DNA from: Candidatus Latescibacterota bacterium
GTDB taxonomy: Bacteria; Latescibacterota; UBA2968; UBA8231
Length of the DNA: 64,000 bases
Direction of reading: 5' to 3'
NCBI GenBank assembly: GCA_965248265.1
Contig: CBDFJF010000001.1
Coordinates: 1,184,001 to 1,248,000, forward strand
The translations under genes were made by a program, and so were the position numbers. The notes below the pieces were generated by a model. It saw nothing but the letters and a program-made list of their open reading frames with translations, had not been told where the DNA came from and searched no databases. Shown here one piece after another: positions 12,472 to 43,462 of this stretch (positions are counted from its first letter, which is position 1; the number at the start of each line of letters is the position of its first letter).

Positions 12472-12995
12472 ATACACTCGAGATGACCCGGTGGGAGTAC
12501 TGCCCTCGCTGCGGCCAGGCAGAAATGCAGCACCGGGGAGACGCCGCCCTCGAATGCACGAAATGTCACTACCTCTATTATCACAGTGCCGTTGCTGCAG
12601 TTGTAGGCATCGTCCAGCACGAAAGCAAGATCATCATCACCAGGCGAGCCAACGATCCGGGAAAGGGACTGCTTGCCATCCCGGGTGGATTCGTCGAACA
12701 CGGGGAGACCCTGGAGGAGACGCTGGTGCGCGAATTACACGAAGAGTTGAACCTCGACGTAACCGCGCCCAGCTACCTGGCTTCCTTTGCCAGCGAGTAC
12801 CTCTTCCGCGACGTACTCTACCGGACAGCCGTCGCCTACTTCGTCGTCACTGACACGGACATCACCCAGGCCCGGGCAGCCGACGACATCGATCACTTTG
12901 AACTCGTGAAGCCCGATGACATCGACGGCAGTAAGCTCGCCTTTGAAGTGGACAAGCTGGCACTGCTTCGGTACTGCGATTGGCGTACCCGTTGA
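12468..12995 (+). CDS. NUDIX hydrolase with N-terminal zinc ribbon
   Basis: CPRCG...CTKC and NUDIX box GGFVEHGETLEETLVRELHEELNL. ATGA overlap with the glycosyltransferase stop. Confidence 0.92.
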   Translation: MNTLEMTRWEYCPRCGQAEMQHRGDAALECTKCHYLYYHSAVAAVVGIVQHESKIIITRRANDPGKGLLAIPGGFVEHGETLEETLVRELHEELNLDVTAPSYLASFASEYLFRDVLYRTAVAYFVVTDTDITQARAADDIDHFELVKPDDIDGSKLAFEVDKLALLRYCDWRTR

Positions 12996-27244: not shown

Positions 27245-27373
27245 GGCCAGCTCACGTCCTGAAACACCCGACTCCCCCGGACCAAAGTAGCTTTCATCGG
27301 TCCCGATCTTGAGGATGAATTGATTGCGGCAGTTGACGAACGTGGGGTAGGATCTGATGTCGGTGATTTCCAT
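27245..27373 (-). pseudogene. 5' fragment of a mandelate racemase/galactonate dehydratase (DgoD-like) enolase
   Basis: MEITDIRSYPTFVNCRNQFILKIGTDESYFGPGESGVSGRELA matches the N-terminal capping domain. Homology ends after 43 codons. Confidence 0.7.
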
Positions 27374-27499
27374 GGTCAGGTGACAACCTAAGGCTTGAGT
27401 GCGGCGCGGCAAGCTTGACCCGCATTCGGCGAGGCCCATATACTCGCGCGACACCATGGGAGCGGATCGCTGGAACGCGGATCGCAGGAGAGCGGATCG

Positions 27500-27931
27500 A
27501 TGAGCTGGCTCAAACGCTTGATGTTGGGCACCCCCTCGGGGTCGGCGAAGAAGGACACTGGACCCACCCCTTCCACGGTCGCAGATTCCGCCTACGAAAA
27601 AACCGCCACCGGGTTGGAGTACTACGACATCAAGGTGGGTGCGGGTGCGGTTCCCTCCAAGGGCGCACAGGTCAAGGTCCACTACAGCGGATGGTTGACC
27701 AGCGGCAAACGCTTCGACAGCTCCGTCGTCAGAGGCAAACCCTTCAGCTTCATGGTCGGGCGTCGCAAGGTGATCAAGGGCTGGGATGAGGGGGTGATGT
27801 CGATGAAGGTCGGTGGCGTACGGCAGTTGAGGGTACCGCCGGCTCTCGGTTACGGCGCTCGTGGCGACCCGCCGGTCATACCCGTGAACGCGACCCTCAT
27901 TTTTGAAATAGAACTCCTCGAAATCGGATAG
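27500..27931 (+). CDS. FKBP-type peptidyl-prolyl isomerase
   Basis: VHYSGWL, FDSS, VIKGWDEG, LGYG, IP.NATLIFEIEL. Confidence 0.96.
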   Translation: MSWLKRLMLGTPSGSAKKDTGPTPSTVADSAYEKTATGLEYYDIKVGAGAVPSKGAQVKVHYSGWLTSGKRFDSSVVRGKPFSFMVGRRKVIKGWDEGVMSMKVGGVRQLRVPPALGYGARGDPPVIPVNATLIFEIELLEIG

Positions 27932-28171
27932 TTGTTGGGGTGAGGCGATCTACACACGGCCACCTATCCCGATTCGTCCCGCCCTGCCGAGCTGCTCCTG
28001 CCAGAGCTTGGCGCCCACCACAACCCGCCACCAACGACCTGGAGCAAACTCGGCCGTTCGGCGTAGAATGATACCCGCCAGTACGGAAAACAGGACGGCA
28101 AGAATATTGCATGATTGCCGTTGGCGCCCGGACCGTAATGGCGAAAAGGGCGTAGGCCAGTGTGCCAAGGA

Positions 28172-28816
28172 TCAGGAGAAGCATGGATACTCCTCTGGCA
28201 TCAGTATGCCATCGTCCCCGCCTATCATCTCTCCGGCCCCAAGCAGAAACCACATGCCCGCGAGTGCGGCACTGGCCGCGTCTAGTTCGTGAGCACTGGC
28301 AGATCTCGTCAGCCCGCGAAGGCCCAGACGCCGCAGACCGCGCAGCAACCCGGCCAGGTCGTGGTGCTGCCGTGGAATCCCCCACGTATCCTGGGCGGCC
28401 CCGGGATAGCATTCGACCGCGACATGACCGAGCGACTCCATCTGTTTTTTCAGGTTCAGCCCGCGCTCGGTCAACATCCGCATCGGCCCTAACGTGATCG
28501 GAAAGAAGCGGATGCCGCGCTGTTGCAGCACGCGATCGCATGGCCTCAAATGCTCGCCGCTCCGATCGTGAATGGACCGGCGGCCGGGCGGCAGACTCAA
28601 CGGTGCATCGATCGGAATCAAATCGGCGTCGCAATCACGCACCCAACCCATCAGCTCATCATCGCTGAATGCCAGGTGCGTCTGGGCCTGGTCTCCGGCC
28701 AGAATACACACTCCGGTGGGTCGGCGCGGCGATCCGGCCAGGTCGATCCCCAGCACTACCAGCTCAGTGTTTGAGATACAGGTGGCCCTTGCTCTCTGCT
28801 GGTCTCTCCCCGTCAC
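28172..28816 (-). CDS. DUF429 family (RNase H-fold) protein
   Basis: GIDLAGSPRRPTGVC, IDAPLSLP, RPCD, VECYPG, HELDA. The start is uncertain. Confidence 0.8.
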   Translation of the reverse strand: MTGRDQQRARATCISNTELVVLGIDLAGSPRRPTGVCILAGDQAQTHLAFSDDELMGWVRDCDADLIPIDAPLSLPPGRRSIHDRSGEHLRPCDRVLQQRGIRFFPITLGPMRMLTERGLNLKKQMESLGHVAVECYPGAAQDTWGIPRQHHDLAGLLRGLRRLGLRGLTRSASAHELDAASAALAGMWFLLGAGEMIGGDDGILMPEEYPCFS

Positions 28817-28852
28817 CAGCGGATATTTTCCTGCACCGGGTTGTGCCAGACC

Positions 28853-29257
28853 CTATTCAATGGTGAATCTCAACTTTCGAGCGGGTTTTTCGTGCAAATG
28901 CCCATGCCCGGGAACGGCGATGCCGACTCGGACGGATGGACCATCGCCCTTGGGGAAGATCTGGTGGAAGGTGAGGGCCGGCACGAAGACGAAGTCCCCC
29001 GCCTTGGCCTCGACCGGTCGATCTTCGCGGCCTTCGATCACCCAGTCGATCTTCCCTTCCATGACGACCCACCACTCGTCGTAGGTATGGCAGTGTCGAT
29101 CGTTCTCCTGGCCGGCATCCTGGTGAATGACGACAGCTCTGAGGTTGTCCGTCAACACAACAGAATGACTCCACGGAGGGAGTCCCATCTCCGCTTTTAT
29201 TTTTTCGAGACTGATATTGTTGAGGGTGGCGCTCAGAATTGGGTCTGCAAGAGACAT
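28853..29257 (-). CDS. Cupin domain protein
   Basis: HCHTYDEWW...GDFVFVPALTFH cupin motifs. Confidence 0.88.
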   Translation of the reverse strand: MSLADPILSATLNNISLEKIKAEMGLPPWSHSVVLTDNLRAVVIHQDAGQENDRHCHTYDEWWVVMEGKIDWVIEGREDRPVEAKAGDFVFVPALTFHQIFPKGDGPSVRVGIAVPGHGHLHEKPARKLRFTIE

Positions 29258-29269
29258 TCGGATCTCCTT

Positions 29270-30355
29270 TTACGATACATGGGGTACAGCGACACCCAGT
29301 TGATTGGCCAGCTGCGTCAATTCCAACCACAGTGAATCCGGCAGATCGATTCCCTCCACCAGACGACGCTGCCGCGTTTCCTCTTCGATTTCGCCAGGGC
29401 AGTAGACTCTGTTGACGCCGGGCAAAGGCCGGGCAGAACTGACCCACGCGGCCAGGTCTTCAACCTCGCTCTCGTAGGTCTCCAGATCGGTGAACGCGCT
29501 GATGTCGATGGCCAGCACCATGACGCCGCCACCCCTATCCCCGCCAGCATTGGTGCATCCAGCCCCGGACAGCGGTCCCACCATCATCTCCACCATCATC
29601 GCCAGGCCGAAACCCTTATGACCGAACTGAGCGCCGCCAAGTGGCGGTATCGCGGTCTCATCCGCATCGTGGTACCGGTTCGGGTCGGTGACATCGGCAC
29701 CCTCATGGTCAATCAACCAGCCGCCCGGCAGCGCTTCGTCGCGGGCGATCTTCTGTTCGATCTTGCCGCCGGCCACCGTGCTCATGGTCATGTCCAGCAT
29801 GAAGGGGGGAAGGCCATTTCGCCGTGGCGCTGAGAACGCGATGGGCTCGGGTCGCAGCCGGCGATCGGCGCTGCCGTGCGGCGGCAGAAATATCCCGCCC
29901 CCATTGTGCCAGACCATGCCGAGCATGCCTTGTACAGCAATCAGCGGCGGAAAAGCGCCGAGACGACCGATATGCCCGACGTTGCGCAGGCAAACGCACC
30001 CGAACGTCGCCTCCCGTGCCTTGTCGACGACAATCTCCACCGCCTTCGTCAACGCGATGATGCCGTGGGCGCCCTTGCCGTCGATGATCGTCATGCAAGG
30101 GTTGTCACGCACGACCTCACGCTCTTCCCAACGCACGTAGTTATTGATCATGTCGTCGGCGAGGCGGGCCAGGAAGAAAACACCATGCGAATCGTGACCA
30201 CTCAGGTGACTGTCGACGTAGTGATCACCGATAGTCAGGGCATCTTCGGCAGGGATTCCGGTTGCGGCGGCAACATCGCAGGTGAATCGGCGCAGTATTG
30301 GTTCGGAGACGGTAGGCATGCTGTCCCTATCTGGATTCGGCGCGTTTTGCTGCAC
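29270..30355 (-). CDS. Ldh_2 family (malate/lactate/ureidoglycolate-type) NAD(P)H oxidoreductase
   Basis: GHDSHG, GHIGRLG, LDM, GHKGFGL, PGEIE. The start may be a few codons downstream. Confidence 0.92.
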   Translation of the reverse strand: MQQNAPNPDRDSMPTVSEPILRRFTCDVAAATGIPAEDALTIGDHYVDSHLSGHDSHGVFFLARLADDMINNYVRWEEREVVRDNPCMTIIDGKGAHGIIALTKAVEIVVDKAREATFGCVCLRNVGHIGRLGAFPPLIAVQGMLGMVWHNGGGIFLPPHGSADRRLRPEPIAFSAPRRNGLPPFMLDMTMSTVAGGKIEQKIARDEALPGGWLIDHEGADVTDPNRYHDADETAIPPLGGAQFGHKGFGLAMMVEMMVGPLSGAGCTNAGGDRGGGVMVLAIDISAFTDLETYESEVEDLAAWVSSARPLPGVNRVYCPGEIEEETRQRRLVEGIDLPDSLWLELTQLANQLGVAVPHVS

Positions 30356-30440
30356 GGGTCGACTACAATGCGCGCCCCAAATTAGACAACACCTGTTCGG
30401 ACCTCAAACCTGCGCGCAGACACCATCCCTCTGAGTGCAT

Positions 30441-30496
30441 GTTTCCCCCGAGGAATATCCGTTGACTCAGACGAATATTCTTAATACCCTCTATAT
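30441..30496 (+). promoter_or_regulatory. Putative sigma70 promoter of a leaderless XRE gene with two tandem operator-like boxes
   Basis: TTGACT (30462)-17 bp-TACCCT (30485)-6 bp-ATG (30497). The 18-mers gtttcccccgaggaatat (30441) and gttgactcagacgaatat (30461) are 13/18 identical. Confidence 0.5.
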
Positions 30497-31132
30497 ATGG
30501 TAACGACCACGAAATTGGGCCTGCCGCCGGAGATCGATCCGGCGACTGAGGGCGCCCCGGAGAATGAGCTGGAGATCGCTATCGGCCGGCAGATGCGGAC
30601 CTTTCGCACGCAGTTGGACATGACAGTTACGGAACTCGCCAAACAGGCCGATCTGTCACCCGGCATGTTGTCGAAGATCGAGAACGGTTTGACTTCACCG
30701 TCACTGGCCACGCTCAAGTCGCTGTCGCGGGCACTCAACGTTCCGGTGACCGCGTTCTTTCGCAAGTACGAGGAGGAGCGCGACGTTTCCTTCGTCCGCA
30801 ATGGAGAAGGGTTGACCATCGAGCGCCGTGGCACCCGCGCGGGGCACCAGTATCAGCTGCTCGGGCACACGGTGAGCCGAAACGTGTTCGTCGAACCCTA
30901 TCTGATCTCGCTCACCGAGCAGTCGGATGTGTTCCCGCTTTTTCAGCACACCGGAGTGGAGTTCATCTATATGATAGAAGGCCGCGTCACCTACCGGCAC
31001 GGCAACAGCACCTACAAAATGGAACCGGGTGATTCACTGTTCTTCGATTCAGACGCTCCACACGGTCCCGAAGAACTCATCGAATTGCCCATCCGTTTTC
31101 TTTCCGTCATCATCGAACCTCGCGTCAACTAG
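30497..31132 (+). CDS. XRE-family HTH regulator with C-terminal cupin sensor
   Basis: LSPGMLSKIENGLTSPSLATL, RRGTRAGHQYQLLG, FQHTGVEFIY, GDSLFFDSDAPHGPE. This type is associated with glx/methylamine loci. Confidence 0.92.
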   Translation: MVTTTKLGLPPEIDPATEGAPENELEIAIGRQMRTFRTQLDMTVTELAKQADLSPGMLSKIENGLTSPSLATLKSLSRALNVPVTAFFRKYEEERDVSFVRNGEGLTIERRGTRAGHQYQLLGHTVSRNVFVEPYLISLTEQSDVFPLFQHTGVEFIYMIEGRVTYRHGNSTYKMEPGDSLFFDSDAPHGPEELIELPIRFLSVIIEPRVN

Positions 31133-31150
31133 AGTACTGAGAGCTGACCT

Positions 31151-32059
31151 ATGTGTGGGATAGCAGGAATCATGTTCAAGGGTGAGATCCCGTCCGATCT
31201 GAGCACCGGCCGGGCATTGGTCCAGATGCTGGACGGGTGCCAGCATCGCGGTCCTGACTCCACCGGGTTCGCCCTCTATTCCCCCGCCACCGACGGTGAG
31301 CTGCGACTGCGTTTCTTCGTCGGTGAGGGGAAGGAGGCGCAGGATGCCATCGACCGATTGGCCGGGGTATTCGACGAACACGGTGCCGCCGTTGTCGACG
31401 GTGACACCGTCGGCCACAACTACCGCGTCACCGTCAAATTCGACGGCGATCTGCAGCGCTTCGCCTATGCCGTCGAGCACGCCGCTAAGGTCGTCTCCAT
31501 CGGCTCGAGCCTGGAGATCGTCAAGGACGTGGGCAGCGCCCACGACGTCGACGAGCGCTACGACGTCGGTACCTTCGAGGGCAGCCACGGGCTCGGACAC
31601 GTGCGGCTGGCGACCGAGTCGGACGTCAAACCGGAGGCATCCCATCCGTTCTGGGCCACCGGCTTCGCCGACATCGCCATCGTCCACAATGGCCAGATCA
31701 CCAACTACTGGAAGATGCGCCGGCGCCTGGAACAGCGTGATTTCGAGTTCACGACTGACAACGACAGTGAGCTGATCGCCGTCTACCTGGCCGACAAGCT
31801 GTCCCAGGGCATCACCCTGGAAGAGGCCCTGCGCACCTCCATCGACGACCTGGACGGTACGTTCTCTTTTCTGGTCTCGACGGGAAACGAGATCGGTTAC
31901 GCCAAGGACCGGTTGGCGGCCAAACCGATGATCCTATACGAGAACGATGACCTGATCGCCGTCGCCTCGGAAGAGGTTTCCCTCAACCGACTGTTTCCCG
32001 GACAAGCCCTGGACACCCGCGAACCCCCACCCGGGACGTATGCCACATGGTCAAAGTAG
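31151..32059 (+). CDS. glxB: Class II glutamine amidotransferase, GlxB/MgsA-like
   Basis: N-terminal MCGIAG (Cys nucleophile), HRGPDS, GHVRLATES, SHPF, VHNGQITNY, NDSE. Confidence 0.85.
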   Translation: MCGIAGIMFKGEIPSDLSTGRALVQMLDGCQHRGPDSTGFALYSPATDGELRLRFFVGEGKEAQDAIDRLAGVFDEHGAAVVDGDTVGHNYRVTVKFDGDLQRFAYAVEHAAKVVSIGSSLEIVKDVGSAHDVDERYDVGTFEGSHGLGHVRLATESDVKPEASHPFWATGFADIAIVHNGQITNYWKMRRRLEQRDFEFTTDNDSELIAVYLADKLSQGITLEEALRTSIDDLDGTFSFLVSTGNEIGYAKDRLAAKPMILYENDDLIAVASEEVSLNRLFPGQALDTREPPPGTYATWSK

Positions 32060-34008
32060 ATCTCGCCGAAATCCCGGTGCGCCGGGCCAATGAGCTGATC
32101 CGCGAACATGGAGAGGCCGGTGACAGCATCGAGGTCGTCAATCCGGACGCGCGGCATCACATCGGCGTCGGCCTGACCGCGCCCGTCGACGTGCACGTAC
32201 ACGGCTCAGCCGGCTACTTCTGCGCCGGCCTGACTGACCAAGCGCGTTTCGAGGTCGACAACAATGCCGGTTGGGGCCTGGGCGACAACATGTACACGGG
32301 GTCCGTGGTGGTACGCGGCAACGCCGGCGCCATCGCCGGGGTCGCCATCCGTGGCGCCGAAATCGTCGTCCACGGCAATATTGGATCAAGAGCCGGACAG
32401 GTGATGAAAGCGGGGACTCTTTGTTGCGCCGGCAATGCCAACTTCATGGCCGGTTACATGATGTACGGTGGCCGCATCATCATCCTCGGAGACTCGGGCG
32501 ACCGCGTCGGCGAAGACATGACGGGGGGTGAGATCTTCGTCGCCGGCGAGGTGCAACAGCTAGGCTCCGACGCCATGCAGACGGACATCTCCTCCGAGGA
32601 ATTGGATGATATCCGCGCCTTTCTCGAGCGCTACCAGATCAACTTCAAGGGGTCGATTCAGAAAATCGTCAACGCCGGTCAGAAGCTGCGTTACAGCACC
32701 CAGGAACCGCAGGTGCGCAGCCTGCCTTTTTTTACCTACTCCGCCGCGTCCGAATACTGGAATCAGAAGGTGCAGGAAGACATCCACATCAAGTCGCACA
32801 GCGGCCGCTACCGCATCCGCGGTTACGGTGGGGCGCGACCGCTGCCTCACCTGGCTGACCTCGCCTTCCGCAAGGACCTGTCGGGTACGCAGGCCGATCT
32901 GGACATCACCTCCAAGATTCGCATGTACACGGAGATCGGCGGCCTACACGGCGCCGAGCCACTGAAGCTTTCGATGCCAGTCATGATCGCGCCGATGAGC
33001 TACGGGGCCCTCAGCCGCTCGACGAAACAGGCGATCGCGATCGCCTCGGGCATGTCCGACATCGCCGAGAATACCGGCGAAGGTGGCATGAGTAGCGCCC
33101 AACGCGACGCCGCCAAGCAGCTAATCTTCCAGTGTCTGGGCGGACGCCTCGGCTGGAACATCCACGACATGAAACGAGCCGACGGCCTGGAGATCTACAT
33201 CTCACAGGGGGCCAAGCCCGGCCTCGGCGGCCAGCTGATGGCCAAGAAGGTGACGCCGGAACTGGCTGAGATCCGTGGCATCCCGGCCGGCATCGACCTG
33301 CGTTCCCCGTCGCGCCATCCCGACATCCTCGGAGCCGACGATCTGGTCATCAAGATCGAGGAATTCCGCGAGGCCACCGGCTATCGACTGCCCGTCAGCG
33401 TCAAGCTCGGCGCCGGTCGTGTGCGCGATGACATCAAGATCGCCGTCAAGGACGGCTTCGATTTCGTCGAGCTCGACGGCATGCAGGGCGCCACTGGAGC
33501 CGGCAGTTCGGAGGTCATCGACCATGTCGGCATTCCGACGTTGCCGGCCATCATCGAGGCTTTGGATGCATTGAACGAGATCGGACGCCGGCAGGACATC
33601 CAGATCGTCCTCATGGGCGGCCTGCGCGACGGCGTCGACGCCGTCAAGGCATTGTGCCTCGGAGCGGATGCCGCAGCCTTCGGAACGTCCGTGTTGATCG
33701 CCGGCGGTTGCATCGCCTGCATGCAGTGTCACGTCGGAACGTGCGTTACCGGCATCGCCACCCAGGATCCCGAACACGAGAAGCGTTACCAACCGCAGGA
33801 GGAGGCCCGCAACATCCATCGCTTCCTCGAAGTCGTGCGCTGGCAGATTGCCGCCATCACCGACGGGCTCGGTTACAGCGACGTCGCCGATCTATGCCGC
33901 GATGACCTGGTGGCGCTCACCCCCGACGCCGCCACCATCACCGGTTTGCCCTACGAGCCCGAGTTGCGCGATAGAGCACAGACACCCGTGCACAGGGAGG
34001 CCGTGTAA
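32047..34008 (+). CDS. Fused GXGXG beta-helix (GlxC/MgsB) plus FMN/[3Fe-4S] glutamate-synthase domain (GlxD/MgsC)
   Basis: The N-terminal ~210 aa are Gly-rich repeats (GSAGYFCAG, GNAG, GNIGSRAG). Then APMSYGALS, NTGEGG, SQGAKPGLGG, DLRSPSRHPD, DGMQGATG, GGLRDG.DAVKALCLGA, CIACMQCHVGTCVTGIATQ. Confidence 0.9.
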   Translation: MVKVDLAEIPVRRANELIREHGEAGDSIEVVNPDARHHIGVGLTAPVDVHVHGSAGYFCAGLTDQARFEVDNNAGWGLGDNMYTGSVVVRGNAGAIAGVAIRGAEIVVHGNIGSRAGQVMKAGTLCCAGNANFMAGYMMYGGRIIILGDSGDRVGEDMTGGEIFVAGEVQQLGSDAMQTDISSEELDDIRAFLERYQINFKGSIQKIVNAGQKLRYSTQEPQVRSLPFFTYSAASEYWNQKVQEDIHIKSHSGRYRIRGYGGARPLPHLADLAFRKDLSGTQADLDITSKIRMYTEIGGLHGAEPLKLSMPVMIAPMSYGALSRSTKQAIAIASGMSDIAENTGEGGMSSAQRDAAKQLIFQCLGGRLGWNIHDMKRADGLEIYISQGAKPGLGGQLMAKKVTPELAEIRGIPAGIDLRSPSRHPDILGADDLVIKIEEFREATGYRLPVSVKLGAGRVRDDIKIAVKDGFDFVELDGMQGATGAGSSEVIDHVGIPTLPAIIEALDALNEIGRRQDIQIVLMGGLRDGVDAVKALCLGADAAAFGTSVLIAGGCIACMQCHVGTCVTGIATQDPEHEKRYQPQEEARNIHRFLEVVRWQIAAITDGLGYSDVADLCRDDLVALTPDAATITGLPYEPELRDRAQTPVHREAV

Positions 34009-36578
34009 TGGCCGTCTACGACCTGCACCGCATCGAAATGCCCGAGCCTCCGGAAGGAGCCTCCGATGACACGGCAGACTTCCACTTCGTGCCCGCCCCG
34101 TGCCAGGTCGCCTGTCCCGTAGGCACCGACGCACCTTCCTACATCGCCTTGATCTGGGAGGAAAAATACGAGGAGGCCTTTGAGGCCATCACTGCGACCA
34201 ATCCCTTCAGCTCCATCTGCGGCCGCGTCTGCGACGCTCCATGCGAACCCGCCTGCCGCCGCACCGACAGCGATGGCCCACTGCAGATCCGCAATCTCAA
34301 GCGCTTCGTCATGGACAAGGTCGGCCACTCCTACGACCCGGGACCCGTACCGGTCACGAGGGATCAGTCTATCGGGATAGTCGGATCGGGACCAGCCGGC
34401 CTCACGGCCGCCCACGACCTGTGCGCCGCTGGTTATGCCGTCGACGTCTACGAAAATAGCGACCGCGCTGGCGGCATGATGGTGTGGGGAATCCCCGCCT
34501 TTCGGCTGCCTCCCGGAATTATCGACGAAGACATCGACCGGCTCACGGGTAAATGCGAGGGTCTCAATATCCATCTCAACACGTCGCTCGGGCGCGACGT
34601 CACACTCGCGGAATTGAAAGAGCGTCACGATGCTGTCTTGCTCGCCATCGGGGCCTGGTGGGGCAAGCCCATGGGCATTCCGGGCGAAGAAGACGAGCGC
34701 GTCATCGACGGGGTTGGCTGGTTGCGAGAGATCAATGCTGGCGCCCGGCCTCAGCTACCCGAAACCGTCGTCGTCATTGGCGGTGGCGACGTGGCCATGG
34801 ATGCCTGCCGGGTGGCCAAACGCCTGCCGGGCTGCGATCACGTTAAGGTCCTCTACCGGCGCGGCCCGAACGAGATCCCGGCACGGCCTATCGAACTTGA
34901 GGGAGCTATAAAGGAGGGTGTCGAGTTCATCTACCATACGCAGCCGGTGGGTGTTGATTCAATGGAGCACGGCATCGCCCTTCGCTGTGTCGAGACCGAA
35001 CTCGGCGAGCCCGGCGAAGACGGCCGGCGGCAACCGGTCCTGGTGAAAGGGAGCGAGCACATCGTCGAGTGTGGCATGGTCATCGCCTCCGTCGGCCAGA
35101 AGGGGGTTTGCGAGGAGCTGGACCAACTCGGCATGATGCAGCCCGACCGGGTGCGGGCGGAATTCAACTCGATGCGCACGGAAGATCCCCAGGTCTTCGC
35201 GGCCGGCGACGGCGCCTTCGGCGGATCCACCATCGTCATGGCAATGCATCACGGACAGCGAGCCGCCTACTACATCAAGGCCTTCCTGGAGGGCAACGAG
35301 TCACCAATTCCGTACCGAACCCCATACCGGACCCGCCGGGTTGAGGTGGCCCAGGACATGATGTGGGAGCGATTAGCTGTCCAGCACCCCGAATTCCTCG
35401 GCCTCGGCAAGGAACCGGTGAAATTTCCGGAAATCGAGACCACCTACGATGATGAGACCGCGCGCAACGAGGCCGCTCGATGCTACCGCTGTGACGCCGA
35501 GACCGGCACGCCCGACTACTCGGTCCGCCACCGCGAAGATCTGTTCTCGATGGCGCGGACCAATCCGGCTGATCGAGAAAAAAAGGCAGCCATGCTGCAG
35601 CGGCGCCTGATCCCGCGGGACAACCCGTTTCCGGACGAGCGTCCGCCCCAGCTCGAAGACCTGGTGTTTTTGCCGGCCAACCTGTCTCGCCTCGTCATCG
35701 ACCCGTACCGGGAGGCCTGCCGCGCCGAATTCACTCTCGGCGGCCAGCTGACCCTTGAGCATCCCTTCCTCGCCACCGGATTCGACCAGGCTCCGGAGCA
35801 GATCAGGGAAGCAGTAGCACAGGGTCTGGCGCCCGATCAAACACCTTACCTGGGCATGCAGCCGCCATCGTCACAGACTCCGGTCCCCTGGTTGCAGCTG
35901 GTGAGTCCGAGCGGACTTGCGCCTGCGGCAGAGGCGGTCGGCTTGGTGCAGGTTGTTGGGGATGAATTTGAACCCATGAACCTCAAGCCCCTGCACGAAA
36001 ACCAATTGCTGGGACTCGTCGTGTCCTCCTCAGCTACCGTTGAGGAAGCGGTTGCCTTTGCCCTGGATCGGGATTACCACCTGCTGGTTCTCGACGGCTC
36101 AGGCGGTCTGGGGACAGATCGCCTGCCTGCCGATGGCCCGTCGGCCGATCAGAAGTGGCCCGAACTGTCCGGCGCTCCAGATCTTACTCTGCTGCGCGAC
36201 ACCGTTGCCACGCTTCGCCAGCTCGGGCGCGAGGAGGAGATCGACCTTGTGCATTTTGGGGGCGTGCGCTCTGGTACGGACGCCGCCAAGCTCGTGGGGT
36301 TGGGTGCCGTAGCGATGGTGATGGGAGTGACCCTGGGTCTGGCAGCCGGGGGCCGCATCGACGATGACACCATCGTCTTTGATTCTGATCTGAGCACGGC
36401 CGAACGGGCCGAGGCGATCGCCAATATCATCAAGGCCGGCACCGGAGAGGCCACCATGATGGCGCGCTGCACCGGTAAGACCGACCTGCACAACATCGAG
36501 CCCGAGGATCTACGAGCCCTGACCCTGGCCACTTCACAGAGCACGGCCATTCCCGTGGCCGGCACCCGTCCCGCCTGA
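34008..36578 (+). CDS. GltD/SudA-like FAD, 2x[4Fe-4S] NAD(P)H oxidoreductase fused to a degenerate glutamate-synthase FMN barrel
   Basis: PCQVACP, ICGRVCDAPCEPAC, GSGPAG, GGGDVAMD, YRR, FAAGD, EAARCYRC. Then LEDLVFLPANLSRLVIDPYRE, GGVRSGTDAAKLVGLGA, MARCTGKTDLHNIEPEDLRALT. TAATG overlap with the upstream gene. Confidence 0.85.
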   Translation: MAVYDLHRIEMPEPPEGASDDTADFHFVPAPCQVACPVGTDAPSYIALIWEEKYEEAFEAITATNPFSSICGRVCDAPCEPACRRTDSDGPLQIRNLKRFVMDKVGHSYDPGPVPVTRDQSIGIVGSGPAGLTAAHDLCAAGYAVDVYENSDRAGGMMVWGIPAFRLPPGIIDEDIDRLTGKCEGLNIHLNTSLGRDVTLAELKERHDAVLLAIGAWWGKPMGIPGEEDERVIDGVGWLREINAGARPQLPETVVVIGGGDVAMDACRVAKRLPGCDHVKVLYRRGPNEIPARPIELEGAIKEGVEFIYHTQPVGVDSMEHGIALRCVETELGEPGEDGRRQPVLVKGSEHIVECGMVIASVGQKGVCEELDQLGMMQPDRVRAEFNSMRTEDPQVFAAGDGAFGGSTIVMAMHHGQRAAYYIKAFLEGNESPIPYRTPYRTRRVEVAQDMMWERLAVQHPEFLGLGKEPVKFPEIETTYDDETARNEAARCYRCDAETGTPDYSVRHREDLFSMARTNPADREKKAAMLQRRLIPRDNPFPDERPPQLEDLVFLPANLSRLVIDPYREACRAEFTLGGQLTLEHPFLATGFDQAPEQIREAVAQGLAPDQTPYLGMQPPSSQTPVPWLQLVSPSGLAPAAEAVGLVQVVGDEFEPMNLKPLHENQLLGLVVSSSATVEEAVAFALDRDYHLLVLDGSGGLGTDRLPADGPSADQKWPELSGAPDLTLLRDTVATLRQLGREEEIDLVHFGGVRSGTDAAKLVGLGAVAMVMGVTLGLAAGGRIDDDTIVFDSDLSTAERAEAIANIIKAGTGEATMMARCTGKTDLHNIEPEDLRALTLATSQSTAIPVAGTRPA

Positions 36579-36582
36579 GCCC

Positions 36583-38730
36583 TCACACAGCCGTCACCTG
36601 AGCCTTGCCGTTGGTGTCAAAGGCCAGCACGTCCATCGGGCACACGTCGATGCAGATGCCACAATGGATACAGCTGGAGTTGGCATTGTCGAACGACTGC
36701 TGATTCTTCGCGAACGACATCACGTCGACGCCAACCTGACAGAACTTCGAACACTCGGCACAGGAGATGCATTTGTCGTTCGAGGTAATCTTGAGCTTGC
36801 CGTACCACTTCGACAGGATCTGGTTGTAGGCAGCCAGAGGACACCAGTAGCGACACCAGATCTTGCCGCCGAAGAATGGGTACAGCGCGATCGGAATCAC
36901 GGCTACCAGCCAGAAATCGACGAGATAGCTGTAAGCCTGCCACCAGGGATTGTTACCATCCGTCTCGTACAGACCGACGACCACCAGACAGATGATGACG
37001 CTGGCATAGAGCACGGCCACCGACTGGAATTCCCACGATCGCGACCGCTGTCCCTTGGGCGCCAGGTGCCGCCAGCGATCGCCGAGTGTTTCCGCCAACC
37101 CACCACAACCACACACCCAGGTACAGAAGCGCTTGCCGTGGTTGCGTGAGAGGATCGGGATGGCGACCAGCGTCCCCAGTACACCCGCTCCGATGAAGAA
37201 CACGGCGATCCACATCGGATCTTCCGGGTACCACCAGAAGAACGTGTTGAAGAACAGGGGAAAAGGCTGGTAGAGCCCCCAGGCCCGCCAGGCGTATTTG
37301 ACGCTGACCGCCTGCACGGCGATGACGTTGACGATCAGGAAGAACGCGAGCTGAAAAGAAATCAGAGAAGTGTAACGCCAGGTCTGATAGCGACCGTCCC
37401 GCGCCTTGCCGCGCCAGCGGATCAGCGCTTCGTACCCGAAAACAGCCATGGCGAGCGTGTAGAGCAGGCTGTAGAGATATCCCTGCTGATAGCCACGATC
37501 TCCCTGAAGATCAGCTATCGCCTCACTCGAAAACAACCAGGCAAAGGGAGCGAAGAACACGTCGAACATCGACCGCAGGGCGCCGTCGTACGCCGACACC
37601 TCGATCAGCTGCTGGTACGGCCAGGCCGCCAACCCTTTACCGTAGCTCTTGAGGGAGTAGAGCGAATAGACCAGCAGGAAGGCGCCGGTCAAAAACGCAT
37701 ACTTCCGGAGGTCCCATTCGTTGTTGAGCCTGATGCCGATAGCCTTGAAGAAGCCTAACGGCAGCTCAGCGCCGATCATCTCGAATAGGGTGTTGCTTTT
37801 GATCTTCTCCCTCTGACCTCCTGACAGAGCAATCTCCAGCGAATCGACATCGACGGATTCGACCCGCGACTCCAGCAGAATACGCAGCTTGCCCTCGGCC
37901 TCGAGCGCACGCACTGCATCGACATTGCGCATTTTCGGAAAAGTCAGCTCCTTGTCGATGGCCGACAACGTAACCGTGTTGGTCGGGTCATTGGCCAGGG
38001 CGATTGCTGCCTCGCAGGCTACGTCTCCTGCTCCGACGATGGTGATGTGCTCGTCGTGAAAATCGTCGGCATCGAGTAGCCGATGGTGAATGCGCCCTGC
38101 GTTCTCCTTCTCCCCGGGCACTTCTAATTTTCTCGGATTGCCCGCCTTGCCCAGCGCCAACACCACTCTGCGGGTGCGGTACTGCCCGCTGTCGCTGATC
38201 ACTTCGAAATTGTCGATATCCCCCTTGATATCCAGCACTTTTTCGTGCTCGTGGATCTCGAGCTTTTCCTCGGCGACCATGCCCCGCCAGCGTTCGAGCA
38301 GCTCCTCTTTCGTGCACTCCTCGAACCAGACCCGAGAGCGATTGTCGACATCGAGTGGCTCGGCGAAGAGCCATTTGCCCTTCATCATCGTCACAAAGGT
38401 GTTGGCAAAGGCTGCCGCGTCGAGGGCTACATAGCGCAAATTCTGATCGGCCGCAGCAACCGTGGCGGCCAAACCCGAGCTCCCCGCGCCGATGATGACG
38501 ACGTCGTAGAGGTCGGCGACCGCGCCACTTTCAGCCTGCAACAGCGGTCCGATCTGCTGCATCAGATCGTGACCCGCGTTCAGGCCCAATTTGACCAGTG
38601 GTGTCCCAGCCAGCTCCCCGACCACGTAAATGCCGGGGATATTCGACTGGCCGTCACTTTCTACCTGGGGTAGGACCGGGTAGGAGGGCTCTGGGGCCTT
38701 GGGGGCGAAAAGGGAGGCTGTAGCCGGCAT
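36583..38730 (-). CDS. Permuted thioredoxin-reductase-like flavoprotein fused to a NapH-like membrane Fe-S domain
   Basis: N-terminal SNIPGIYVVGEL precedes DVVIIGAGSSG. Then PRKLEVPGE, VGAGDVACE, TM helices, FCTWVCGCGG, WCRYWCP, CISCAECSKFC and CIHCGICIDVCP. Confidence 0.82.
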   Translation of the reverse strand: MPATASLFAPKAPEPSYPVLPQVESDGQSNIPGIYVVGELAGTPLVKLGLNAGHDLMQQIGPLLQAESGAVADLYDVVIIGAGSSGLAATVAAADQNLRYVALDAAAFANTFVTMMKGKWLFAEPLDVDNRSRVWFEECTKEELLERWRGMVAEEKLEIHEHEKVLDIKGDIDNFEVISDSGQYRTRRVVLALGKAGNPRKLEVPGEKENAGRIHHRLLDADDFHDEHITIVGAGDVACEAAIALANDPTNTVTLSAIDKELTFPKMRNVDAVRALEAEGKLRILLESRVESVDVDSLEIALSGGQREKIKSNTLFEMIGAELPLGFFKAIGIRLNNEWDLRKYAFLTGAFLLVYSLYSLKSYGKGLAAWPYQQLIEVSAYDGALRSMFDVFFAPFAWLFSSEAIADLQGDRGYQQGYLYSLLYTLAMAVFGYEALIRWRGKARDGRYQTWRYTSLISFQLAFFLIVNVIAVQAVSVKYAWRAWGLYQPFPLFFNTFFWWYPEDPMWIAVFFIGAGVLGTLVAIPILSRNHGKRFCTWVCGCGGLAETLGDRWRHLAPKGQRSRSWEFQSVAVLYASVIICLVVVGLYETDGNNPWWQAYSYLVDFWLVAVIPIALYPFFGGKIWCRYWCPLAAYNQILSKWYGKLKITSNDKCISCAECSKFCQVGVDVMSFAKNQQSFDNANSSCIHCGICIDVCPMDVLAFDTNGKAQVTAV

Positions 38731-39024
38731 TGTTGACTGTCTCGGAATGAGTGTGGCTTTGGCTGGCTCAGTAGATTGGATTCAAGGGACAGCCATGGGG
38801 ATTCAGCACGAAGTTATTCGAACTCGATTGACCCTCAGCGATGGTAAATGTCTTACCTCCTGAGCACAATGCCCCATACTGTCGGCGGTGCCGGCTTGGT
38901 CGAGCGAAACTTGCCAAATCCCGTCGTCAACCTTAAGCTGCAGACAGCAGGCCTCGGGGTGGTATCGGTATACGCCGCGCAGAGACCGGCCACCCATGGC
39001 TTCTCCCCCTGATGTAACTCGCTA

Positions 39025-40089
39025 GTGCTCTGTTAAGAAATCGAGCTTGTACTTTGTCGTAAGTCGTGGTATCATGGATACATATGGTGAATCCTTCAGG
39101 AGGGTGATGCTATGTGTCTCCATGCTCGTTCGCCGAACGCGGCGGAGTCTAAGGAACTGGGACGGTGGCTGAAACGGCCTCGCAACGCCGTGCAGATGCG
39201 CCGTGGGCAGTTGATCTCGTTCAGCGCCCAGGGCATGCGCGTCCAGGAGATCTCGGATACACTGCATCTGCATGAGGAGTACGTTCGCCAGTTGATCCGC
39301 CAGTACAACGAAGGGGGATTGACGGTTTTGCGCACTCGGGCACGTCCGGGGCGTCGTTGCGCAAGCTGACTGACTGCCTGGTGGGACGGCAGATGATTCC
39401 CGAGGTTTCGCATGTGACCATCGGAAAAATCCTGGATCAACATAAGGTTACCTATCAACGGACGCGCACCTGGAAAGAATCAAAGGACCCGGAGTTTGTC
39501 TCTAAAAAAAACGCATCAACCGACTCTACAAGCGGGCGCCGAAAGACACGGTCGTAGTCTGTTTCGACGAACTGGGACCAGTCCAGATCAAGCCGCATGC
39601 CGGTGCTTCCTGGGCCCCACACAAGCGCCCGGTCCGGCATCGGGCAACCTATAGCCGCCACGGCGGCGTCAGCTATTTCTTTGGAGCCTATAACGTCCAT
39701 GAGGACATCCTGTGGATGCATCACAAACCCAAGAAACACGCGTCGGTCGTACTCGATTTCCTCAAGGCCATTCGGCTCCGCTATCGCACGGCGAAGCGGA
39801 TCTATGTCGTCATGGATAATCTGTCGACGCACAAGACACCGCCGATCTTGCAGTGGTGCCGACGAAACCGGGTCTCGCCGGTCTTCACCGCCACCAACGC
39901 GTCATGGATGAATCGGCTCGAATGTCACCTCACGGCAGCCCATTACTTCGTCATCAAAAACAGCGATCCCAACGATCATCGAGAAGTCGGCCAGCGCATG
40001 CAGGAGTACCTGAGGTGGCGAAACAAGAACACCGACAACGCCAAGCTGGCCAAAGTCCAAAACTCAATGCCCACTCTTTAACAGAGCAC
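39025..40089 (+). mobile_element. IS630-family insertion sequence (internally deleted)
   Basis: Perfect 12-bp terminal IRs GTGCTCTGTTAA (39025) and TTAACAGAGCAC (40078-40089). TA duplication at 39023-24 and 40090-91, each within CTAG. Confidence 0.93.
39112..40081 (+). pseudogene. IS630 transposase (HTH + DDE), broken by an internal deletion/frameshift; also carries a -1 slippery A8
   Basis: HTH segment ...RARPGR jumps out of frame to SLRKLTD at ~39354. RTRTWKESKDPEF is followed by the A8 run at 39504-39511. The -1 frame reads VCFDELGP...MDNLSTHK...NASWMNRLE. Confidence 0.88.
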
Positions 40090-40839
40090 TAGCGCCGCGG
40101 CCCCAGCGGCGATAGTTGGCTTCTCCAGCGATCCACTATATTTGTTTTGAGATCGAGCCACGGACATCACGTCGGCATTTCGATGTGGTCTAATCCGCGC
40201 GGCACACGTGGTCAGCGCGAGGTCCTGAAGGGCATTGTAAATGTCGTCCTCATGCGGGTAGTCTCAAGTTTGAGCAGATACGTTCTGATTGCTCCAGCGT
40301 ACGGACACACGGTTCTATCATCAAACGCCTCTGATCGACCTTCTGGTAGCCAAAGGTATGCGTGCAGATTGTTCCGTCTTGCTACCTCATATTAGCGTTG
40401 CATAGCCCGCAGACTATCACACTCGGGCCGGCGCCATTGTGCGCGCACCCACCGTCTGGAGGATATGGGCGATCCATGCACAACCGGGGCTCGAGTCATT
40501 ATATGCTCGAATCAATTTGGGGGGTTATTATTGGCGAGGAGGGGGGACTTTGAGTGCACCTGACAGCAATCCTACGGAATCTGGAATGAGTTGGCCTCAG
40601 AGTGCGACCGCTCGCAACGATGGGAATAAGTTGCCGCCCAAGGCAAAGAATGCTCCGATTCGTATCGCGAAGGAATGTGCAGGAAGTGAGCGCCCGCTGG
40701 TCTGTATTTTGCCTGATGGATAGTAAAGAGATCGTCAGAAGAGTGGAACATTGCCGGGAACATCCTGCAGGATGAGAACCTGCAGCTTGAGCTGTTGCAC
40801 GTAATAACGAGAGAAATAGCGGTTCAACCCGTTGTGGAG

Positions 40840-40930
40840 ATGCTGCAGAAGTCGACCATCGCCCTACCTTGTTTAGTGGGTGGACGCTAGTCGCGTTTGC
40901 GATGTCGTCGCGCAGTCAATCGGAAAATAG
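40840..40930 (+). pseudogene. Possible C-terminal remnant of a DegT/DnrJ/WbpE-type sugar aminotransferase
   Basis: LQKSTIALPC [frameshift] VDASRVCDVVAQSIGK*, with the stop abutting the ATG at 40931. Confidence 0.35.
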
Positions 40931-42382
40931 ATGAGCGAAATTTTCATACACGAATCGGCAGAGGTGGCGCCGGATGTCAGCATCGGCGAGGGCACTAAAA
41001 TCTGGGTCAACGCCCAGATCCGAGAGGAAGTTACGGTGGGATCCGCTTGCGTGATCAGCAAAGACACCTACATCGACAAGGGTGTCTGCATCGGTAGCGG
41101 CGTCAAAATACAGAACGGAGCTTCCATCTATGCCGGCGTGACCCTGCAAGACCTCGTTTTCGTAGGGCCGAACGCCACCTTCACCAATGACAAGCTGCCA
41201 CGGGCTTTCAAGGAAGACTGGCACATCACGCCAACCGTCGTCAAAGAGGGCGCGAGTATTGGTGCCAACGCCACGATCGTCTGCGGCGTAACGATCGGTG
41301 AGTACGCGATGGTTGCTGCCGGCAGTGTTGTAACCAAGGACGTCGCTCCGTATTCACTCGTTATGGGCAATCCGGCACGTCATTTGAACTATGTCGATTC
41401 CTCCGGCGCGCGCAGGGAAAATCGCGCTGGAGAAAATGAAGTGGTTCGCTTCGGACTGATCGGACTCGGCAACATGGGAGAAAATCACCTCCGTATTCTC
41501 TCGCTGTTGAAGTCCGTGCATATGTCGTTTATCTACGATATAGACCAGCCACGGACCGCAGAGTTGGCCGCCGAGTACGATGTGACAGCCACCAATCAAC
41601 TGGACCGGGAACTGGACACGATCGACGCCTTGGTCATCGCCTCGCCGACCTCAACGCACTTCGACTATATCGAGATGGCTTCCCCCCATCTCAAGTATCT
41701 CTTCGTGGAGAAACCGTTGACCGATCAAGTCGAGACGTCCGAGGCGGTTTGCAAACTCGCGGAATCGAATGGAATCGCAGTCCAAGTGGGCTTTATCGAG
41801 CGCTTCAACCCCGCTGTGATCGCCCTGAAACGCCTTGTAGAAAACAGCAAGCGAATCATCAATGTGGACTTCACCCGTACCAACAAGCTCAGTCGGCGCA
41901 TAACGGATGTCGATGTAATCAGCGATCTGATGATTCACGACATCGATCTGGCTTGCTACTTCAATGGCCCTGTCGCCGAAGTCGAGGCTTACGGCACGGT
42001 GGAGAGAGGAAGTATCGCTTTTGCACGCGCCACGCTTTATCACGAAAACGGAACTTTTTCTAGTCTGACAGCAAGTCGTATAACGGACAAGCGCATTCGC
42101 CAGATCACGGTAACCAGTGAAGACGGCTTCGTCGACTGCAACCTGCTCCGCAAGGAGGTGCTGGTGACCAGACAATCTGTGGAACAGGCGAACCGTGAGC
42201 CGTCGATTGCGGCTACCGAGGAAACCATCGACGTGCGCCCGCAGGAGCCATTGCTCAGTGAACTCGTCCACTTCGCACAGCTGTGCCAGGGCCATGATGT
42301 GATTGTTCCGAACGCGCGGGACGGGTTGGCGACAAATCGCATCGCTGAGCGCGTTAGGGATGGAATCGAGGAGCGGCTGTGA
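40931..42382 (+). CDS. Fused WbpD-like hexapeptide N-acetyltransferase and WbpB-like Gfo/Idh/MocA dehydrogenase
   Basis: IGEGTKIW, VKIQN, FVGPNATFTND..PRA, GASIGANATIVCG, GNPAR. Then GLIGLGNMG, VEKP, GFIERFNPA, DLMIHDID. Confidence 0.9.
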   Translation: MSEIFIHESAEVAPDVSIGEGTKIWVNAQIREEVTVGSACVISKDTYIDKGVCIGSGVKIQNGASIYAGVTLQDLVFVGPNATFTNDKLPRAFKEDWHITPTVVKEGASIGANATIVCGVTIGEYAMVAAGSVVTKDVAPYSLVMGNPARHLNYVDSSGARRENRAGENEVVRFGLIGLGNMGENHLRILSLLKSVHMSFIYDIDQPRTAELAAEYDVTATNQLDRELDTIDALVIASPTSTHFDYIEMASPHLKYLFVEKPLTDQVETSEAVCKLAESNGIAVQVGFIERFNPAVIALKRLVENSKRIINVDFTRTNKLSRRITDVDVISDLMIHDIDLACYFNGPVAEVEAYGTVERGSIAFARATLYHENGTFSSLTASRITDKRIRQITVTSEDGFVDCNLLRKEVLVTRQSVEQANREPSIAATEETIDVRPQEPLLSELVHFAQLCQGHDVIVPNARDGLATNRIAERVRDGIEERL

Positions 42383-43374: not shown

Positions 43375-43462
43375 CTTCTGCGTTTCGGAGTGCCTGAACA
43401 GGCATGTAGTCAACGCAGCACCCTCTGCCGCCGGTGATGATCCCCCCTGCGCGGCTATAGGC

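Follow-up and report, generated by a model that had tools for sequence, protein, structure and literature searches.

What is a second set of glutamate synthase modules for, when it comes with its own reductase, is arranged as an operon and sits in a genome that also encodes a canonical glutamate synthase? The question is raised by four open reading frames (ORFs), P0001–P0004, on the plus strand at 30497–36578 of a 64-kb stretch of a Candidatus Latescibacterota genome (this whole stretch, the DNA that was analysed, is called the window below). P0001 is a predicted regulator. P0002, P0003 and P0004, which we call the trio, are a stand-alone amidotransferase, a fusion of a GXGXG domain with a flavin mononucleotide (FMN)/iron–sulfur (Fe-S) synthase barrel, and a GltD-like flavoprotein with an extra barrel at its C-terminus. 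Judging from sequence, gene neighborhoods and co-occurrence, we lean towards reading the trio as an NAD(P)H-dependent N-methylglutamate (NMG) synthase that works in the style of glutamate synthase (glutamine:2-oxoglutarate amidotransferase, GOGAT) and would catalyze gamma-glutamylmethylamide (GMA) + 2-oxoglutarate + NAD(P)H -> N-methylglutamate + glutamate. In sea and soil, methylated amines serve as a significant source of nitrogen and carbon, and the middle enzyme of the NMG pathway is, to our knowledge, poorly characterized biochemically.

Predicted modules and conservation of the trio

By domain prediction, every module of an NAD(P)H-dependent glutamate synthase appears to be present, split among three proteins, with the reductase gene in the operon (Table 1). 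The first-pass annotation, made from the DNA letters alone, had described an operon of an XRE-cupin regulator, an amidotransferase starting with MCG, a GXGXG plus FMN/Fe-S fusion and an 856-residue GltD-like flavoprotein, and this account holds down to the exact coordinates and the Pfam domains. For P0002, an MCG(I/L)AG start was found in all 59 homologues that adjoin a trio, and residues C2, R152, N180, G181, D205, S206 and E207 were invariant in 40 sequences of the family; we take the R, N-G and D-S-E residues to be the catalytic motifs of a class-II glutamine amidotransferase (GATase). In P0003, Pfam placed GXGXG at residues 35–186 (PF01493, 59.8 bits, cut-off 32.5) and then Glu_synthase at residues 300–610 (PF01645, 1.2e-94), and both a Q-G-A-K-P-G loop and four cysteines (C555, C558, C561 and C566) were invariant in 40 sequences. 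P0004 has Fer4_20 (residues 30–105) and Pyr_redox_2 (residues 122–416) and continues for about 430 residues after them; eight of its cysteines (C32, C36, C71, C75, C79, C83, C492 and C495) were invariant in 25 sequences. A complete GOGAT-style cofactor set and electron path are thereby predicted for the trio. No Pfam match to Glu_syn_central (PF04898) was found in P0002–P0004 at E ≤ 0.01, and Pfam found no Fer4 dicluster after residue 105 of P0004.

Curated family models did not name these proteins, as none of P0001–P0004 reached an NCBIfam cut-off. The first 500 residues of P0004 were nearest to PRK12771 (402 bits) and PRK12814 (397 bits), both 'putative NADPH-dependent glutamate synthase small subunit' and both below cut-off, while TIGR01316, TIGR01317 and TIGR01318 gave 201–262 bits on P0004 against cut-offs of 448–483. 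The GltB equivalog NF008730 gave 164.4 bits against a cut-off of 1047. Among sequences in the PDB, the GltD-like module of P0004 matched 9bov_A (1.6e-89), 8oh5_C and the small chain of glutamate synthase (GltS; 2vdc_G, 2.9e-60).

We treat the trio as one unit because its stop and start codons overlap, its genes occur jointly in related loci, and a natural fusion protein exists. Read from the sequence, P0001 and P0002 are separated by an 18-nt gap, P0002 and P0003 overlap by 13 nt, and P0003 and P0004 overlap by 1 nt (TAATG); GC content of the third codon position is strongly phased throughout all four ORFs. Of 8000 scored candidates, 2845 were significant relatives of P0004, and the best 120 of these 2845 were 816–869 residues long and 64–93% identical. 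The trio recurs in at least 566 species-level genomes from several phyla (one genome per species; 566 of 596 candidate stretches confirmed). Counts for related loci rest on 80 loci kept from that scan, many of which end at contig edges; they include Planctomycetota, Alpha- and Gammaproteobacteria, Latescibacterota, Gaiellaceae, Akkermansiaceae and the cultured Aestuariivirga litoralis. By blastp, P0004 was present in all 80 of them, P0003 in 72 and P0002 in 63, and a P0001 homologue in 14–16 (14 by blastp, 15 by clustering). The trio is a conserved and widespread three-gene unit.

Genomic link to the NMG pathway

To describe the neighborhoods, the ORFs of the 80 loci were clustered and the recurrent clusters annotated. 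The most frequent neighbor was GmaS, a glutamine synthetase (GS)-like protein of about 438 residues (20/80 loci), followed by the XRE-cupin regulator already counted (15/80), an ammonium-transporter family gene (Amt, 10/80), SoxA-like (9/80) and SoxB-like (8/80) genes, a PuuD-like class-I amidotransferase (8/80), formate-tetrahydrofolate ligase (FTHFS, 5/80), an AraC/DJ-1 regulator (5/80), a SoxD-like gene (4/80) and a gene resembling flavin-containing monooxygenases (FMO-like, Tmm-like; 3/80). At least one methylamine-pathway gene was present in 29 of the 80 loci, and in 13 of the 65 loci with enough flank a GmaS ORF followed on the same strand, no more than 2.5 kb downstream. The match of the GS-like neighbor to 7cql_A ('type III glutamate--ammonia ligase') had an E-value of 3.8e-183 and that to 9qur_A ('glutamate--methylamine ligase') one of 1.2e-107, against about 1e-59 for ordinary GS; 7cql is presumably the Rhodovulum GmaS. 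At the genome level, of 50 genomes that carry the trio and span several phyla, 48 had a GmaS match at E ≤ 1e-90, and the two genomes lacking one hold a GS-like ORF in the locus according to the clustering.

The first-pass annotation had noted that neither gmaS nor mgd lies in the window, which is correct, and had proposed looking for them elsewhere in the genome; both are on contig 2. There, on one strand, we found genes for Amt, SoxB-, SoxD-, SoxA- and SoxG-like proteins (mgdABCD-like) and a 443-residue GmaS (TIGR03105, 605.8 bits, cut-off 469.6), with no mgsABC beside this amt-mgdABCD-gmaS cluster. When split MgsA, MgsB and MgsC of both clades described below were used as queries, their sole counterparts in the genome were P0002 and P0003, and the weaker remaining matches of the same search were the FMN barrels of GltB and of a 535-residue protein, the C-terminal barrel of P0004 and two other amidotransferase loci. 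The operon had also been taken for a self-contained NAD(P)H system: the reductase is indeed in the operon, and independence from the NMG pathway is contradicted by gmaS and the mgdABCD-like genes on the other contig and by the GmaS frequencies given above.

The same genome encodes a canonical gltB (a 1599-aa frame) with gltD just downstream, as well as the stand-alone 535-residue Glu_synthase-family protein, and GXGXG occurs in only two of its proteins, GltB and P0003. Since canonical gltBD is present, the trio is not needed as a housekeeping GOGAT. Directly downstream of the contig-2 gmaS is a gene for a 492-residue PurF-like class-II amidotransferase (L089, 5865–7343, minus strand); at 175.7 bits for TIGR01134 (cut-off 350), this is more likely a diverged paralogue than the housekeeping purF.

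Relationship to split NMG synthases

The nearest relatives of the trio's amidotransferase and FMN parts are the separately encoded NMG synthase (NMGS) proteins GlxBCD/MgsABC (32–46% identity). Using split MgsC-like sequences from loci L090–L103 and L031, we found the FMN part of P0003 to be 67–87% identical among trios, 39–46% identical to 15 split MgsC-like proteins and 33% identical to the GltB of its own genome; P0002 shared 32–45% identity with the GATase that relatives encode in their split clusters. A quick maximum-likelihood tree of the FMN domain (40 rows) represented the Rhizobium etli glxD type by L091 and was built without the characterized MgsC of Methylobacterium, Methyloversatilis and Ruegeria. 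In this tree 23 trio rows and 15 split rows stood on opposite sides of one branch (Shimodaira–Hasegawa-like approximate likelihood ratio, SH-aLRT, 92), and GltB and the 535-residue protein were on very long branches with unsure placement. The trio FMN subunit thus appears as a separate sister group to the split MgsC/GlxD sampled; the first-pass annotation had considered that the proteins might nest within MgsABC, and the tree points the other way.

Gene order gives a second line of comparison. The split-clade member L091 is 84–85% identical to the plasmid-borne glxD of Rhizobium and Sinorhizobium, and the R. etli record reads soxA/D/B, glxA, XRE regulator, glxB, glxC, glxD, glnT, purU. P0001 is the orthologue of the XRE regulator encoded directly before R. 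etli glxB, at 64% identity over 190 residues (E 2e-92), so that in regulation and synteny the trio occupies the place of glxBCD. The occurrence of GXGXG before FMN, which had been read as a rearrangement, is the ordinary glxB-glxC-glxD gene order with B and C fused. Relatives lacking the trio have canonical clusters, such as SoxA-like, MgsA (298 aa), MgsB (239 aa), MgsC (444 aa) and GmaS (435 aa), with no GltD-like gene; these and the R. etli cluster bear out the earlier description of canonical NMGS as three separate genes with no such partner. Methylobacterium extorquens is given as having mgsABC-gmaS in a passage of PMC6237917.

The Fe-S cluster columns of the FMN domain separate these groups further. 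Trio proteins have four cysteines in a compact C-x2-C-x2-C-x4-C motif, invariant in 40 sequences, and the genome's own GltB has three. Split clade 1 (8 sequences) has four with an insert of about 18 residues, and split clade 2 (7 sequences, the mgd-gmaS-mgsCBA/Rhizobium GlxD type) has none, from which it follows that the classical type has shed the cluster. The classical NMG synthase (acting on glutamate and methylamine) is a redox-neutral FMN enzyme that needs no external reductant, and loss of the cluster fits such an enzyme. Some of the four-cysteine split sets adjoin a different GS-like gene (about 489–490 aa) and not a GmaS orthologue.

We then turned to the window's class and surveyed its 116 genomes of 85% completeness or more, calling the trio by a barrel match at E ≤ 1e-80 and GmaS at E ≤ 1e-100. 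GmaS was found in all 17 genomes with the trio, in 57 of the 61 with weak barrel matches only (mostly frames of about 440–570 aa, split MgsC-like) and in 1 of the 38 with no barrel match. Among the matches listed for this class, no trio genome also had a split MgsC-like frame. One genus (g18) contains four trio and three split-type genomes: GmaS is 11–14 kb from the trio in the three genomes that have both on one contig, and the split-type genomes have a different GmaS, 73–344 bases from the nearest MgsC-like match listed. Trio and split enzymes therefore alternate among the window's close kin, and they co-exist elsewhere.

The extra barrel of P0004

The first-pass annotation had proposed a second homologue of the glutamate synthase FMN barrel at the end of P0004, and domain, profile and fold comparisons all agree with it. 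Within whole P0004 the barrel scored 18.6 bits for Glu_synthase, under the 20.4 cut-off, and cut out alone it scored 21.0 bits. In an alignment of the last 337 residues of P0004 (35565–36575) with 49 homologous domains, Glu_synthase was matched by 49 of the 50 (best 5.1e-11) and FMN_dh by all 50. The AlphaFold2 model of the barrel (predicted local distance difference test, pLDDT, 92.1; predicted template modelling score, pTM, 0.89) has eight strands, with no helices over residues 97–156. Its top structural matches (Foldseek, VIA-align) were FMN-dependent TIM barrels with Z 20–22.5, led by flavocytochrome b2 (22.5) and then type II isopentenyl diphosphate isomerase, and Azospirillum GltS alpha aligned at Z 19.7 over 270 residues (chain residues 821–1189). 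In a profile–profile comparison with the P0003 family, barrel residues 157–318 aligned with P0003 residues 459–637 (probability 98.6%, E 1.2e-15); in that alignment the Fe-S segment of the synthase barrel is replaced in P0004 by a Cys-free stretch. The GG-x-R-S-G-T-D phosphate-loop motif is retained, and a QGAKPG loop was not found when the P0004 sequence was read by eye. Identity among barrels from 71 loci was 40–64%. Because of the Pfam family matches, the fold matches and the profile alignment, we consider the C-terminal barrel to be, on sequence and model evidence, a truncated paralogue of the MgsC/P0003-type synthase barrel.

Homology to the central domain of GltB was also considered and found no support. 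None of the 50 barrel domains matched Glu_syn_central, and the best alignment with GltS falls in residues 821–1189, which the relevant passage of PMC8097209 assigns to the synthase domain (the central domain being 423–780). With hhalign, the barrel profile gave a probability of 0.2% against a 15-sequence GltB central-domain profile and of 1.5% against a GltB synthase profile, compared with 99.8% when the P0003 family was aligned with GltB synthase as a positive control. The same source describes the GltB central domain as a truncated alpha/beta barrel that lines the ammonia tunnel (PMC8097209, part of the text), and a role analogous to it is proposed for the P0004 barrel as a hypothesis only. 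A predicted complex of P0002, P0003 residues 300–653 and the barrel scored 0.70, and a control with chain 2 replaced scored 0.54.

Beyond the trio itself, 106 members of a library of 50%-identity representatives matched the barrel at E ≤ 1e-30, and an ESM Atlas search returned only clusters of about 320–630 aa with Glu_synthase-type Pfam domains, and one without any. Several alternative architectures (P0159, P0165, P0191, P0197 and P0272) were seen: a natural protein of 1486 aa with GXGXG-FMN-Fer4_20-Pyr_redox_2-barrel in one chain, one of 1031 aa with GXGXG-FMN-barrel and no GltD module, one of 720 aa with GXGXG-2x[4Fe-4S]-FMN, and, in the representative library, several stand-alone truncated barrels of about 360 aa. 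Two genomes have irregular copies that may be frameshifts or fragments. In G080 (C3:649257-649721) a second, partial barrel copy lies in a 166-aa frame about 5 kb from the full gene, and in G079 (C10:517024-517997) the barrel match is in two pieces in separate open frames of 872 and 864 aa.

Locus layout and surroundings

The coordinates of the operon and of other features of the window are collected in Table 1. A promoter scan of 30200–36800 gave no promoter-like site, the same interval had 6 terminator-like sites against 3.7 expected, and an Rfam search of the window matched no family. In the run-level listing, the stretch takes small shares of seawater and marine metagenome runs, and none of the runs is of RNA.

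Table 1 Features of the operon and its surroundings (positions in the window).
Feature	Position	Strand	Basis
tRNA-Pro(AGG), sole tRNA call in the window	12732..12818	-	
Ldh_2 (malate/L-lactate dehydrogenase 2) family gene	29270..30355	-	Pfam 4.5e-82
P0001, XRE-HTH + cupin transcriptional regulator, 211 aa	30497..31132	+	Pfam HTH_3 1.2e-14, Cupin_2 4.4e-12
P0002, stand-alone class-II (Ntn) amidotransferase, MgsA/GlxB-like, 302 aa	31151..32059	+	GATase_6/7 1e-18, MCG start
P0003, GXGXG beta-helix + FMN/Fe-S synthase barrel, MgsB+MgsC-like fusion, 653 aa	32047..34008	+	Pfam
C-x2-C-x2-C-x4-C Fe-S motif of P0003 (C555, C558, C561, C566)	33709..33744	+	4 Cys invariant, 40 sequences
P0004, whole GltD-like flavoprotein, 856 aa	34008..36578	+	
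GltD-like NAD(P)H/FAD/2x[4Fe-4S] module of P0004, aa 1-519	34008..35564	+	Fer4_20, Pyr_redox_2
C-terminal truncated FMN-type TIM barrel of P0004, aa 520-856	35565..36578	+	probable degenerate paralogue of synthase barrel
715-aa protein	36583..38730	-	Pyr_redox_3/thioredoxin-reductase-like N-terminus

Neighboring genes in the window, among them the Ldh_2 gene, the 715-aa flavoprotein and a class-III aminotransferase, were ruled out as members of the system, with either no match or 1–4 weak matches (26–29% identity) in the 80 loci. The Ldh_2 gene is divergent from P0001, its nearest NCBIfam models are all below cut-off, and no homologue of it was found in the 80 related loci; its family includes DpkA, an NADPH-dependent N-methyl-amino-acid dehydrogenase. 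The gene for the 715-aa protein is convergent to P0004, 4 nt from its stop, and is not conserved beside the trio; its C-terminus is of the NapH/MauN ferredoxin-type family (TIGR02163 70.7 bits, below cut-off). Upstream, about 2 kb (27300–29270) has ORFs overlapping on both strands and weak codon-position GC phasing, and three minus-strand ORFs tested there (177, 245 and 196 aa) matched no Pfam family. GC content is lower at 38700–44000 and 54000–58000 (0.52–0.58, compared with about 0.60–0.63 elsewhere), with few long ORFs at 38.7–40.9 kb. The tRNA is far from the locus.

Discussion

In the mechanism that we favor, GmaS, encoded on the other contig, would form GMA from methylamine, glutamate and ATP. 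The Cys1 amidotransferase P0002 would hydrolyze GMA and hand the methylamine to the FMN site of P0003, where methylamine and 2-oxoglutarate would give an N-methyl-imine that is reduced to N-methylglutamate. The two electrons would run from NAD(P)H through flavin adenine dinucleotide (FAD) and the two [4Fe-4S] clusters of P0004 to the four-Cys cluster of P0003 and on to FMN. MgdABCD would then split N-methylglutamate into glutamate and a one-carbon (C1) unit. The net effect would be to bring methylamine nitrogen into glutamate without free ammonia, a GS/GOGAT-like cycle for methylamine. P0001 would regulate the operon, and the truncated barrel of P0004 may have a structural part in the complex or line its tunnel. 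A gamma-glutamyl-alkylamide donor, as the first-pass annotation suggested, is the best-supported guess from sequence. Of that earlier interpretation as a whole, the modules and the amide donor hold up; the self-containment of the pathway and a domain order peculiar to this locus do not. The proposed NAD(P)H dependence matches a statement in PMC6237917, in the part of the text at hand, that the redox cofactor of NMGS is unknown, with NADH, NADPH and ferredoxin as candidates.

Several observations weigh against this assignment. No gmaS or mgd gene is in the 64-kb window itself, and of the 39 loci whose flanks reach 5 kb or more on each side only 16 have a methylamine-pathway neighbor. GmaS-family and Mgd-family enzymes may also serve other substrates. 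Mgd has been reported in homarine catabolism (PMC13390433, a portion of the article). A redox-neutral classical NMGS means that the pathway does not demand NAD(P)H. FMN subunits of split clade 1 have four cysteines, yet no GltD-like gene is in the loci read, so that the cluster motif alone is no proof of a dedicated reductase. At the class level, the genomes are kin and not independent, and the counts accordingly overstate the evidence. Finally, a stand-alone GXGXG frame (about 220–460 aa) is present in at least 30 of 50 trio genomes across phyla, and three loci (L031, L012 and L099) hold a full split MgsABC-like set near the trio. Given this co-existence, the two systems are not simply interchangeable, and the reaction of the trio may differ from NMG synthesis. 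This is the main unexplained point; there may be a division of labor (nitrogen assimilation versus C1 dissimilation) or a difference in substrates.

The latter thought leads to an alternative to which we give a small but real chance, namely that the trio transfers a different alkylamine, from another gamma-glutamyl-alkylamide or as the free amine, to 2-oxoglutarate or another 2-oxoacid, or that it runs oxidatively and feeds NAD(P)+. Co-existence with split MgsABC-like sets in many genomes would be accounted for, as would the PuuD-like class-I GATase neighbors (8/80 loci), and the pairing of some split sets with the different 489–490-aa GS-like gene, and of the trio with the GmaS orthologue, implies that paralogous amine-activating systems exist. 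However, the partner enzyme is a close GmaS orthologue, the recurrent neighbors are methylamine-specific (Tmm-like FMO, FTHFS and Sox/Mgd-like), and the Q-G-A-K-P-G loop of the 2-oxoglutarate site is invariant. We think it unlikely that the trio is instead a redox-neutral NMG synthase of the classical kind (glutamate + methylamine or GMA -> N-methylglutamate + ammonia) in which the GltD-like subunit only re-reduces or activates FMN when a bound 2-oxoglutarate intermediate is lost, or matches activity to the NAD(P)H pool. In its favor, a genome with gmaS and mgd has no MgsABC homologue other than the trio, the alternation of trio and split sets in close relatives suggests the same net reaction, and the classical FMN enzyme manages with no outside reductant. 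Against this stand the nature of the 856-aa subunit, which at 64–93% identity and with translational coupling looks stoichiometric and catalytic, and the four cluster cysteines, which are lost in Rhizobium-type GlxD and invariant in the trio, arguing for a real difference in electron flow.

Rather improbable, too, is that the trio is a true NAD(P)H-GOGAT, a second isoenzyme that uses glutamine (glutamine + 2-oxoglutarate -> 2 glutamate) and is co-regulated with methylamine use to re-assimilate the ammonium released. All GOGAT modules and ligands are present, ammonium-transporter genes recur (10/80 loci), and the generic gamma-glutamyl-binding residues are kept in the amidotransferase, all of which such an isoenzyme would have. 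But canonical gltB and gltD are in the same genome, and P0002 and P0003 are closer to GlxB/GlxD-type proteins (32–46%) than to GltB, to which the FMN part is 33% identical and the GATase has no match at 1e-8. The NCBIfam score for GltB is 164 bits where 1047 is the cut-off, the neighbor is a GmaS orthologue and not an ordinary GS, the regulator is of the glx-cluster type, and the trio alternates with split MgsC inside the class.

Compared with known systems, the NAD(P)H-dependent NMG synthase that we propose has both shared and distinct traits. Like GlxBCD/MgsABC, the trio has the order amidotransferase, GXGXG, FMN barrel, partners of the GmaS/GlnT, Sox-like Mgd and Amt kinds, and a shared XRE-cupin regulator (64%). 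It differs in that B and C are fused in P0003, in the four cluster cysteines of its FMN subunit (none in Rhizobium-type GlxD), and in the extra GltD-like NAD(P)H/FAD/2x[4Fe-4S] module with its truncated barrel, for which the canonical clusters read have no gene. With GltB/GltD (Azospirillum brasilense, PDB 6s6s/2vdc) it shares the catalytic modules, the predicted electron path and the three GltB cluster Cys positions. In the trio, however, the modules are spread over three proteins in another order (GXGXG before FMN), whereas GltB is a single alpha chain with GAT-central-FMN-GXGXG; there is no Pfam Glu_syn_central, and in its stead a truncated barrel is attached to the reductase subunit; four cysteines make up the cluster motif, not three; two of the GltD-cluster cysteines come after the flavin domain (C492 and C495); and the NCBIfam GltB and GltD models are far below their cut-offs. 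In split glutamate synthases of the archaeal/Thermotoga type, the amidotransferase, GXGXG and FMN/Fe-S parts are proteins of their own, the cluster motif has four Cys, and a GltD-like partner occurs in some cases; we know of no GmaS/Mgd link for them, nor of a truncated second barrel on their reductase.

Dihydropyrimidine dehydrogenase (DPD, PDB 1gt8/1h7x) resembles P0004 in having a GltD-like N-terminal module and a TIM barrel in one polypeptide (as described in part of PMC8097209), and the two match in sequence at 1.1e-28. The barrel of P0004 is unlike that of DPD in being truncated and of the Glu_synthase/FMN_dh type (Z 14.8 to 1gt8_A, compared with 19.7–22.5 to GltS and flavocytochrome b2), P0004 has no C-terminal 8Fe-ferredoxin domain, and the trio's catalytic barrel is on another subunit. 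The available portion of the same review of GltD-like Fe-S flavoenzymes covers GltS, DPD, Nfn and AegA, and the words methylglutamate and methylamine do not occur in that portion (PMC8097209). Our literature search, whose coverage leaves most subscription journals and supplements outside, found no description of a fused MgsBC with a GltD-like subunit.

A bolder version of our assignment, which we regard as possible and still doubtful, is that the trio is the missing 'GOGAT of methylamine', an NAD(P)H-driven GMA:2-oxoglutarate amidotransferase in which the P0004 barrel stands in for the GltB central domain, serving as a dock for the amidotransferase and as the wall of an amine tunnel, as an independent replay of the duplication and decay proposed for that domain. 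If this were true, the redox partner of at least one form of NMG synthase would be settled, and a route by which marine and soil bacteria widely scavenge nitrogen would come into view. The barrel would in any case be a traceable example of a truncated barrel arising from a catalytic one, and the trio would widen the range of architectures among GltD-like Fe-S flavoenzymes. The trio is common, with thousands of metagenome proteins besides the at least 566 species-level genomes, and every name seen for P0003, P0004 or a close relative is generic ('FAD-dependent oxidoreductase', 'glutamate synthase', 'NADPH-dependent glutamate synthase beta subunit-like oxidoreductase'), so that metagenome pathway reconstructions may mis-score methylamine use. 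As a probable natural NMGS-like form with an electron-donating subunit encoded in its own operon, the trio gives direct experimental access to the question of how bacteria obtain nitrogen from methylamine.

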